A stretch of 11,770 nt of DNA, from the NCBI GenBank assembly GCA_964419615.1, contig CAYQPU010000026.1:1-11770 (forward strand). The letters run 5' to 3'. This stretch comes from an uncultured Methanosarcinales archaeon. GTDB lineage: Archaea; Nanobdellota; Nanobdellia; Woesearchaeales; JAGVZT01. The notes below the pieces were generated by a model, which had not been told where the DNA came from, made no database searches, and saw only the letters and a program-made list of their open reading frames with translations. Position numbers and translations under genes: made by a program. This document shows positions 1,861-2,937 of this stretch, one piece after another (the stretch's first letter is position 1; each line of letters begins with the position of its first letter).

Positions 1861-1977
1861 TTATTTTGTTAATCCATACTTATCTTCAAAGTCTTTGACT
1901 TTGAAAAACTTACCTTTTCGGATCTTATCTAGCTTTTCCAGGTAGTTCTTTTTGGCTGTGGGTTCTTCAATTACCAA
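1861..1977 (-). CDS. Small 38-aa basic protein (MVIEEPTAKKNYLEKLDKIRKGKFFKVKDFEDKYGLTK), possibly antitoxin-like
   Basis: This is the 3' part of track ORF 1861..2073, whose 5' part overlaps the tRNA. There is an in-frame TTG at 1977..1975 preceded by AGGAAG and a TATATTAA box. It resembles the C-terminal half of small archaeal DUF2683-type proteins (from memory, not searched). Confidence 0.45.
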   Translation of the reverse strand: MVIEEPTAKKNYLEKLDKIRKGKFFKVKDFEDKYGLTK

Positions 1978-2036
1978 AGATCTTCCTAAACCATTAATAT
2001 ATTCTTTAATACTGATTTTCCAATTCTTCTTATTAG

Positions 2037-2041
2037 AAAAA
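2037..2041 (-). terminator. Oligo-T tract directly after the tRNA discriminator base
   Basis: The minus strand reads ...GGGGCA-TTTTT-CT, typical of archaeal intrinsic termination. Confidence 0.5.
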
Positions 2042-2055
2042 TGCCCCGTCCGGGA

Positions 2056-2085
2056 CTTTCGATAAAACAACAAATGTTGTGTTTG
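2056..2085 (-). other. tRNA intron 3, 30 nt, T-loop position 59/60
   Basis: BHB: central helix TTCG(54-57)/CGAA, 3-nt bulges AA|C and AG|T, with the T stem as outer helix. The interior contains the hairpin CAAC-ATTT-GTTG. Confidence 0.9.
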
Positions 2086-2106
2086 TTCGAACCCAGGTCG
2101 TCGCCT

Positions 2107-2123
2107 TTCTCCAATCTTAAACT
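2107..2123 (-). other. tRNA intron 2, 17 nt, canonical position 37/38
   Basis: Sequence AGTTTAAGATTGGAGAA. Central helix CTCT(32-35)/GGAG, 3' bulge AA|A38. The intron-side helix is weak, so the motif is a relaxed bulge-helix-loop. Confidence 0.9.
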
Positions 2124-2143
2124 CGAGAGGGCGAAATGATTAG

Positions 2144-2316
2144 TTGCCCGATCTTTTACTAAACTCAACCTAAAATAGTGACTGGTTTGTCACGTGTCGT
2201 GGCTATCTAGTATAAAATATAGGCCACGTCAAGGGACTGCAAGTCCCTTATGTTTTGGTCGACCTTTTTTTAAAAGGTCGTTTTGGTCGAGCTTTTGCGC
2301 TGCGCGGAAAAGATCG
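2144..2316 (-). other. tRNA intron 1, 173 nt, D-loop position 19/20
   Basis: Strict BHB: central helix GTCC(15-17a)/GGGC, bulges GG|C and AA|C. The intron-side helix is GATCTTTT/AAAAGATC (8 bp) and the exon-side helix is TA/TA. Confidence 0.9.
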
Positions 2317-2361
2317 CCGGACTACACCAACGGGGCATACTCCCAAAGAAGCAGATCGTCC

Positions 2362-2376
2362 TTTTTAAAGTTTATC
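2362..2376 (-). promoter_or_regulatory. BRE-TATA promoter of the tRNA gene
   Basis: The minus strand reads GATAAAC-TTTAAAAA, with the TATA 5' end 33 nt upstream of tRNA nucleotide 1. Confidence 0.65.
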
Positions 2377-2391
2377 ATAATTACATGAACT

Positions 2392-2937
2392 CTATGGACA
2401 ATGGCAGCAACAGTCTCCTTGTACAATAGGTGCTTTCTCATTCCTAAGTCCCAGAACATATTGAGTGTGATACATACTATTCATCAAAAACATTGATAAA
2501 AACTCTTGATTACTCCTACTTTTAAATTCTGATCTAATCAATAATTTGCTTCTACAATCAAGTATGGCAATATCATAAAACCCTGATTTTTTAAAACAAG
2601 ATGCACCCCACCTAAGTTCAGATAGATTAATCTCTGTTTCCAAAAAACCGTCTCCTTCGTGATTTGTAAACCTAATATGTACTTGTTCAACATCTTTTGG
2701 AGGCTTGTGTGAAACATAATCCGTAAAAATCTTATAATCCGCAATTGGATATGGTAATCTCTCATTATCATCTCCCATAATAACATACTGTATACTATTC
2801 CATGCAGTACAAGCAGAAAGAGTTTCTGAACCGTTAAACTCTTCTAGTTTCCTTAGAATCATTGCTATGTTAGAACCCAGAAAGTTGTAAGAATAATTCA
2901 ATGCACTTATTAGATCTAAGTAATCAGAATTATTCAT
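2392..2937 (-). CDS. Hypothetical protein, 181 aa, C-terminal CCCHCP tail
   Basis: Open frame 15 nt downstream of the 2953..3735 gene on the same strand, so probably co-transcribed. No family recognised. Confidence 0.7.
   Translation of the reverse strand: MNNSDYLDLISALNYSYNFLGSNIAMILRKLEEFNGSETLSACTAWNSIQYVIMGDDNERLPYPIADYKIFTDYVSHKPPKDVEQVHIRFTNHEGDGFLETEINLSELRWGASCFKKSGFYDIAILDCRSKLLIRSEFKSRSNQEFLSMFLMNSMYHTQYVLGLRNEKAPIVQGDCCCHCP

Follow-up and report, generated by a model that had tools for sequence, protein, structure and literature searches.

Evidence for a functional tRNA-Glu(CUC) gene interrupted by three BHB introns in a marine Woesearchaeota

We describe a tRNA gene of a marine Woesearchaeota (DPANN) in which 220 of 295 nt are intron. 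We are highly confident that it is the functional, single-copy tRNA-Glu(CUC) gene of its genome and that its three interruptions are BHB introns, which would be removed along the pathway proposed below. The gene occupies positions 2336 to 2042 on the minus strand of the window (the whole stretch of DNA that we analysed, 11,770 nt long) and consists of four exons (Table 1). All four are collinear within 295 nt on one strand, which separates the gene from split and permuted tRNA genes, and with three introns, at 19/20, 37/38 and 59/60, it belongs with the multi-intron genes of the Thermoproteales type. An earlier note, made from the sequence alone, had proposed a four-exon tRNA-Glu(CTC) with introns at 19/20, 37/38 and 59/60. 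Its exon sizes (20, 20, 21 and 14 nt) and its intron share prove exact, and the gene itself is borne out by an ARAGORN call on the spliced product, by a BHB motif at each junction and by the agreement of relatives.

Table 1 Features of the tRNA-Glu(CTC) gene in the window
Feature	Position	Strand	Description and basis
TATA-like box TTTAAAAA	2362..2369	-	26-33 nt 5' of the mature 5' end; read from sequence; putative promoter
Exon 1, 20 nt	2317..2336	-	tRNA positions 1-19: acceptor 5' strand, D-stem 5' strand, D loop to G19
Intron 1, 173 nt, D loop, 19/20	2144..2316	-	BHB scoring, constrained folding
Three-hairpin core module in intron 1	2194..2285	-	Intron positions 32-123; member of a multi-copy intron family (BLAST)
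Exon 2, 20 nt	2124..2143	-	Positions 20-37, with anticodon CTC (34-36) and G37
Intron 2, 17 nt, canonical, 37/38	2107..2123	-	BHB scoring
Exon 3, 21 nt	2086..2106	-	Positions 38-59, position 47 absent
Intron 3, 30 nt, T loop, 59/60	2056..2085	-	BHB scoring, folding
Exon 4, 14 nt	2042..2055	-	Positions 60-73, discriminator A73 last; CCA not encoded
T5 run	2037..2041	-	Directly 3' of A73; likely terminator

The mature tRNA and its gene

When gene positions 1-20, 194-213, 231-251 and 282-295 are joined, ARAGORN identifies the resulting 75-mer as tRNA-Glu(ctc), with acceptor, D, anticodon and T stems of 7, 3+1, 5 and 5 bp. This is the clean cloverleaf that had been claimed for the spliced product; its one mismatch, U13:U22 in the D stem, is usual in the group, being present in 12 of 13 Glu tRNAs of relatives. 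The anticodon CUC lies in a 7-nt loop, and the D arm (GGUGUAGUCCGG...AAUCAU) is of the Glu type common to the aligned Glu tRNAs of relatives. At its 5' end the gene reads GCCCCGUUGGUGUAGUCCGG, as is typical of archaeal tRNA-Glu, and at its 3' end UCCCGGACGGGGCA followed by TTTTT (minus strand). Two intronless orthologues, identical to the 75-mer at 66 and 68 of 75 positions, score 59.9 and 57.8 bits against RF00005 (gathering score 29).

In unspliced form the locus gave no tRNA with ARAGORN, whether or not introns were allowed, and no match to the Rfam tRNA model at either the gathering score or E<=10, so the expectation that default callers would miss the gene holds for both. Searches of Rfam for group I and group II self-splicing introns returned no match at the gathering score and chance-level matches alone at E<=10. 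A spliced scan of the whole genome (1.48 Mb) recovered two Glu genes, this one and a Glu(UUC) gene at C13:18022-17844 whose three introns occupy the same sites and measure 32, 43 and 29 nt; no other tRNA-Glu(CTC) is present elsewhere in the 99%-complete genome.

The Glu(UUC) gene of the same genome has GTTTAAAAAC at a distance equal to that of the TATA-like box of Glu(CTC), and the Glu(CTC) gene of a second species of the genus (hereafter the congener, G001) has an A/T box at the corresponding upstream distance. Across the precursor (window 2037-2336, minus strand) there are five internal T runs, each exactly 4 long, and the sole run of at least 5 follows directly after the discriminator, an arrangement that fits selection against premature termination inside introns.

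The neighbouring ORFs, which by Pfam encode a PfkB kinase, a glycosyltransferase and three products without a family, have no link to tRNA. Directly upstream of the tRNA gene lies a 181-aa ORF (window 2392-2937, minus strand) whose product ends in CCCHCP; it has no Pfam family and no paralogue in the genome, and it is not found beside the congener's Glu(CTC) gene. Three flanking ORFs were likewise not found within 1.5 kb of that gene.

Splice motifs and folding of the precursor

We scored BHB motifs as two 3-nt bulges flanking a 4-bp helix, each bulge being cleaved 3' of its second nucleotide. Every one of the three junctions has a motif with a fully paired central helix (Table 2). Because BHB-like motifs are frequent by chance (33 candidates in the 295 nt under loose criteria), we take the motifs alone as consistent with splicing, not as proof of it, and place the evidential weight on the cloverleaf and on the comparison with relatives. 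Against the same background of chance motifs, we found no convincing candidate for a nested BHB (twintron) that would excise the repeated core of intron 1. No C/D-box motifs were found in the introns.

Table 2 BHB motifs at the three junctions (arrows, cleavage positions)
Intron	Site, length	Central helix	Bulges	Outer helix	Inner helix
1	19/20, 173 nt	GUCC/GGGC 4/4	GG↓C, AA↓C	2 bp	8 bp
2	37/38, 17 nt	CUCU/GGAG 4/4	CG↓A, AA↓A	5 bp (anticodon stem)	1 bp
3	59/60, 30 nt	UUCG/CGAA 4/4	AA↓C, AG↓U	5 bp (T stem)	1 bp

When the 295-nt precursor is folded without constraints, the MFE structure already contains the central helix, the T stem and the 3' bulge of intron 3. At introns 1 and 2 it adopts slightly different registers, relative to which the BHB forms lie at +4.3 and +6.1 kcal/mol; overall, imposing a single BHB motif costs 2.3 to 6.1 kcal/mol above the MFE. 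Under constraint, one structure accommodates all three BHBs, the D-stem pairs 10-12:23-25 and the other cloverleaf stems at -95.9 kcal/mol, compared with -110.3 kcal/mol for the MFE.

These folds bear on how the introns might leave the precursor. The earlier note had argued that the D-loop BHB can form only if the D arm is refolded, and one alternative reading of the gene follows from this: it would be functional, but spliced in an obligatory order by a broad-specificity activity, with the 37/38 and 59/60 introns going first and the D-loop intron last, after rearrangement of the D arm. The D-loop motif does have the weakest outer helix of the three, 2 bp stacked on the D stem, and its register is not that of the MFE fold. 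Yet the three BHBs, the cloverleaf stems and the D-stem pairs are mutually compatible in one fold, so that neither D-arm refolding nor a fixed order is required, and the D-loop BHB on its own lies 2.2-4.3 kcal/mol above the MFE. We therefore regard an obligatory order as unlikely; splicing may be ordered, but nothing in the folds demands it. The canonical site, which had been called relaxed, scarcely deserves that name: its 4-bp helix is flanked by two bulges and backed by the 5-bp anticodon stem, and only its inner helix is short.

Comparison with Glu tRNA genes of relatives

We searched 40 relatives by BLAST with the locus as query and then applied spliced alignment, which yielded Glu genes from throughout the order. 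The Glu(CTC) orthologues have between no and three introns, and these are always at 19/20, 37/38 and 59/60 (Table 3). In sequence, the mature tRNA matches that of other genera at 66-72 of 75 nt, and in the congener intron 1 is identical at 147 of 172 positions (85%). The central helix of the D-loop motif stays paired despite one- or two-sided changes (GUCC/GGGC here, GUCC/GGAC in G004 and GCCC/GGGU in G019). Among the 13 Glu tRNAs compared, all acceptor, anticodon and T-stem positions are paired, and 9 pairs whose halves are separated by introns occur as two to four pair types. This count leaves out the Glu(UUC) genes of four relatives (L007, L012, L013 and L014), because their spliced alignments are imprecise near the anticodon arm. 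In one relative (L020; G038:C14), an intronless Glu(UUC) gene and a second tRNA gene are on the same strand as the 23S rRNA gene, no more than ~300 nt from its 3' end.

Table 3 Intron lengths (nt) in Glu(CTC) genes of the order
Genome	Relation	D loop	37/38	T loop
G000	Own genome	173	17	30
G001	Congener	172	12	129
G019	Another family	33	17	31
G006	Same family, unpublished genome	38	49	32
G004	Same family	66	none	38
G028	Same order	none	48	76
G007	Same family	none	none	none
G010	Same order	none	none	none

The comparison also speaks to whether the gene is alive. It could be a decaying tRNA pseudogene that has taken up repeat elements, leaving tRNA-Glu(UUC) as the only reader of GAG: wobble pairing would in principle let a UUC anticodon decode this codon, and the core of intron 1 is indeed a repeat, with about 15 other matches in the genome. 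Decay, however, would have to have spared the exons, which are identical to those of the congener at 75 of 75 positions (20/20 in exon 1, 20/20 in exon 2 and 21/21 in exon 3), when the 53 nt upstream agree at only 29 (55%). No stem is broken, and the stems covary among members of the order; every insertion falls precisely within a BHB whose central helix is fully paired (4/4); and the TATA-like box and the T5 run are in place. Moreover, Glu(UUC) is equally interrupted, as are about 14 tRNA genes of the genome, and these cannot all be dead. We consider a pseudogene very improbable.

The interruptions might also be products of assembly, if repeats had caused chimeric joins when this genome was put together from a metagenome. 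The core of the intron is repetitive, and two contigs of the congener end inside a repeated 129-nt intron. Against such joins, a 577-nt X1 contig covers window 1876-2452 with zero differences, although X1 may be the source sample of the window, so that this contig is not necessarily independent. Contigs of a second study tile the gene, again with zero differences (X5, 1822-2063 and 2035-2253; X6, 2181-2352), and the congener's gene is built alike. We give an assembly artefact next to no credence.

The core of the long D-loop intron belongs to a repeat family

The interior of intron 1 is predicted to form a multibranch fold, and its core (intron positions 32-123) gave 18 further BLAST alignments at 74-92% identity, at about 15 other places in the genome; introns 2 and 3 had no paralogues in the genome by BLAST. 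Hosts of the core module include the T-loop intron of tRNA-Pro(UGG) and both the D- and T-loop introns of tRNA-Arg(CCU), and core-family members are also found in tRNA-His (in the anticodon intron) and tRNA-Gln(UUG). By this sequence similarity, which is significant and reaches from one tRNA species to another within the genome, the introns qualify as a paralogous ('transposed') family. When BHB-guided intron removal and ARAGORN were applied to 16 family copies, the host tRNA was resolved at 5, some of them doubtful, and the spliced-alignment census described below was used instead. Summed over metagenome contigs, depth rises about 3-fold across the core module.

Over its first 9 nt and its final 14 nt, intron 1 matches the corresponding ends of the D-loop intron of Glu(UUC), which is 32 nt long; the match takes in the inner helix, a strand of the central helix and the bulge. 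In the congener, Glu(UUC) itself has a 164-nt D-loop intron of the same kind as intron 1 of Glu(CTC), in place of the 32 nt seen here. Short D-loop introns are found in other genera and long ones in this genus alone, and the long form is therefore most simply regarded as derived, although the direction and mechanism of change are inferred. The three sites themselves are old in the order and recur in the Glu(UUC) paralogue, and the exceptional 173-nt size would have come about through a structured insert of ~140 nt, including the ~90-nt three-hairpin core, between the conserved ends of a ~32-nt intron.

Both Glu genes of the congener have one and the same structured 129-nt T-loop intron, which is absent from the Glu genes of the genome studied here and shares only a short CGACCAAAA motif with the core family. 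Its Glu(UUC) gene is split over two contig ends (L102, G001:C28; and L103, G001:C1), inside this very intron. The recurrence of the 129-nt intron in Glu(CTC) suggests recent copying or gene conversion between the paralogues, together with a repeat that breaks assembly.

From these observations we offer a tentative model, to which we assign somewhat less than even odds. Intron 1 would have grown from within, when a structured insert with the ~90-nt core settled between the BHB-forming ends of a small, old intron; such inserts would have spread, within one genus, among the D- and T-loop introns of tRNAs that are not related to each other, and from one Glu paralogue to the other. In this lineage, with a loop-less alpha-type EndA as its sole endonuclease, tRNA introns would offer an active mobile element, of RNA or DNA, places where it can insert safely.

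Splicing enzymes and a proposed pathway

The genome encodes one candidate for the splicing endonuclease, a 219-aa EndA (G000:C3:32058-32714; L001:1474-2133, minus strand) with PF02778 and PF01974 (101 bits) domains. These are the sole matches to either family above the cut-off in the genome, and tblastn at E<=10 recovered the gene itself and no second EndA gene. The protein is collinear with the alpha4 EndA of M. jannaschii (1a79), with just two one-residue gaps and with the positions of the Tyr/His/Lys triad kept. In the alignment it has neither the 6-aa insertion of the N. equitans alpha subunit nor the 5-aa insertion that follows the catalytic histidine in the ARMAN-2 catalytic unit. Its architecture is thus that of a single alpha-type gene with no second subunit gene and no specificity loops, and going by sequence the enzyme is probably a homotetramer (alpha4). 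Its Lys-rich N-terminal extension of ~50 aa, which varies in length among relatives, might add RNA affinity. The closest homologues come from MAGs named Woesearchaeota or Nanoarchaeota.

This architecture argues against the broad-specificity endonuclease that the earlier note had postulated and that the obligatory-order reading requires. The sole EndA is of the plain alpha type, with the M. jannaschii-like layout and no inserted specificity loop, and the same single collinear EndA occurs in relatives with few and in relatives with many interrupted tRNA genes.

We propose the following pathway for the functional gene. Transcription from the TATA-like box at -33 to -26 to the T5 run would yield a precursor of ~300 nt. 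At each motif described above, EndA would cut inside both 3-nt bulges. RtcB, which the genome encodes (PF01139, 538 bits), would then join the four exons and probably circularise the introns. RNase P and 3' trimming would finish the ends of the tRNA, and the CCA-adding enzyme, also encoded, would add the CCA that the gene lacks.

Heavy interruption is typical of the genome

RF00005 and ARAGORN each detect 10 tRNAs in this genome, which is 99.4% complete and has 33% G+C. We took a census with 69 tRNAs of two relatives (G007 and G031) as spliced-alignment queries, keeping loci whose spliced product passes ARAGORN. It recovered 33 loci with 32 anticodons (for example C7:13061-13349, C13:36874-37193 and C32:19640-19936): seven with a single intron, 12 with two and about 14 with three; the census is approximate because its boundaries were set without BHB refinement. 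At least 26 of the 33 loci have two or more introns. Intron sites cluster near 20/21, 37/38 and 59-61, and 16 of the 76 introns are at least 100 nt long. Apparent four-intron genes (Pro, Val and Arg) turned out to be alignment artefacts, with three introns each. Six interrupted tRNA genes form a 2-kb cluster on the minus strand (G000:C13:17151-19247): Lys(UUU), Asp, Glu(UUC), an Ile/Met-type gene (tat call), Gly(GCC) and Val(UAC).

A DPANN genome that is 99% complete thus seems to be without three quarters of its tRNAs because its tRNA genes are multi-intron. The rarity that had been claimed for such genes does not extend to their own genome, given the share of three-intron genes in the census. 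By RF00005, 10 tRNAs are detectable in the congener, 13 in G023 and 31 to 38 in G007, G031 and G034; these differing counts indicate that heavy interruption is lineage-specific. G023, a single-contig complete genome from another family of the order, may represent independent heavy interruption.

Discussion

The gene is a new example of a known oddity, and typical of its own genome. Its closest parallels in layout are the multi-intron tRNAs of Thermoproteales (Sugahara 2008, as described in PMC4033280), which likewise have as many as three BHB introns, in non-canonical as well as canonical positions, and are missed by standard finders. In that order three introns per tRNA gene is the stated maximum, and intron transposition has been described (PMC4033280). 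Going by that secondary account, our system differs in its host, a DPANN woesearchaeote and not a crenarchaeote; in its enzyme, a single alpha-type EndA without the Crenarchaea-specific loop in place of (alpha-beta)2; and in the much greater length of some introns (173 nt for intron 1, and the census introns of at least 100 nt). Transposition in Thermoproteales (Fujishima 2010, via PMC4033280) is alike in that similar introns sit in unrelated tRNA genes of one genome, implying copying. What differs from transposition as summarised there is the unit, here a structured module with a ~90-nt core inside introns with older BHB ends, and its location in D- and T-loop introns.

Pre-tRNA-Glu(UUC) of Methanopyrus kandleri has a D-loop intron at 20b/21 (HBh') and a canonical intron at 37/38 (PMC5829648). 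It shares with our gene a Glu tRNA with D-loop and canonical introns, an EndA without a specificity loop and a weak outer helix at the D-loop site; our gene, by contrast, has its D-loop site at 19/20 with both 3-nt bulges and carries a third intron, at 59/60, and its genome encodes an EndA of a single subunit type instead of alpha plus beta (PMC5829648). ARMAN-1 and ARMAN-2 (Ca. Micrarchaeum) are also DPANN with introns outside the anticodon loop, but theirs is a three-unit epsilon2 EndA with an ARMAN-specific loop and ours a single-unit protein of 219 aa (PMC3239211, PMC3488258). Kaneta et al. (2018) linked alpha4-type EndAs of DPANN to tRNA gene disruption and noted incomplete tRNA sets in new DPANN genomes (PMC5829648). 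A known system in another superphylum resembles ours in that most tRNA genes are interrupted, over half are multi-intron, annotators miss D-arm introns and a census by means of compact relatives is needed. Asgard lineages with 92-95% of their tRNA genes interrupted have been reported (PMC11291895), and a 2026 preprint takes its tRNA census by comparison with compact relatives, as we did (10.64898/2026.10.13.758758).

For Nanoarchaeota and Woesearchaeota, these findings affect annotation, completeness estimates and claims of tRNA loss or of split tRNAs. The combination of many non-canonical introns with a plain single-subunit EndA provides a test of the published idea that inserted specificity loops drive the disruption of tRNA genes. 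Finally, the contrasts between the two congeners (30 versus 129 nt in the T loop, and 32 versus 164 nt in the D loop of Glu(UUC)) let recent change in archaeal tRNA introns be viewed at the level of sequence.
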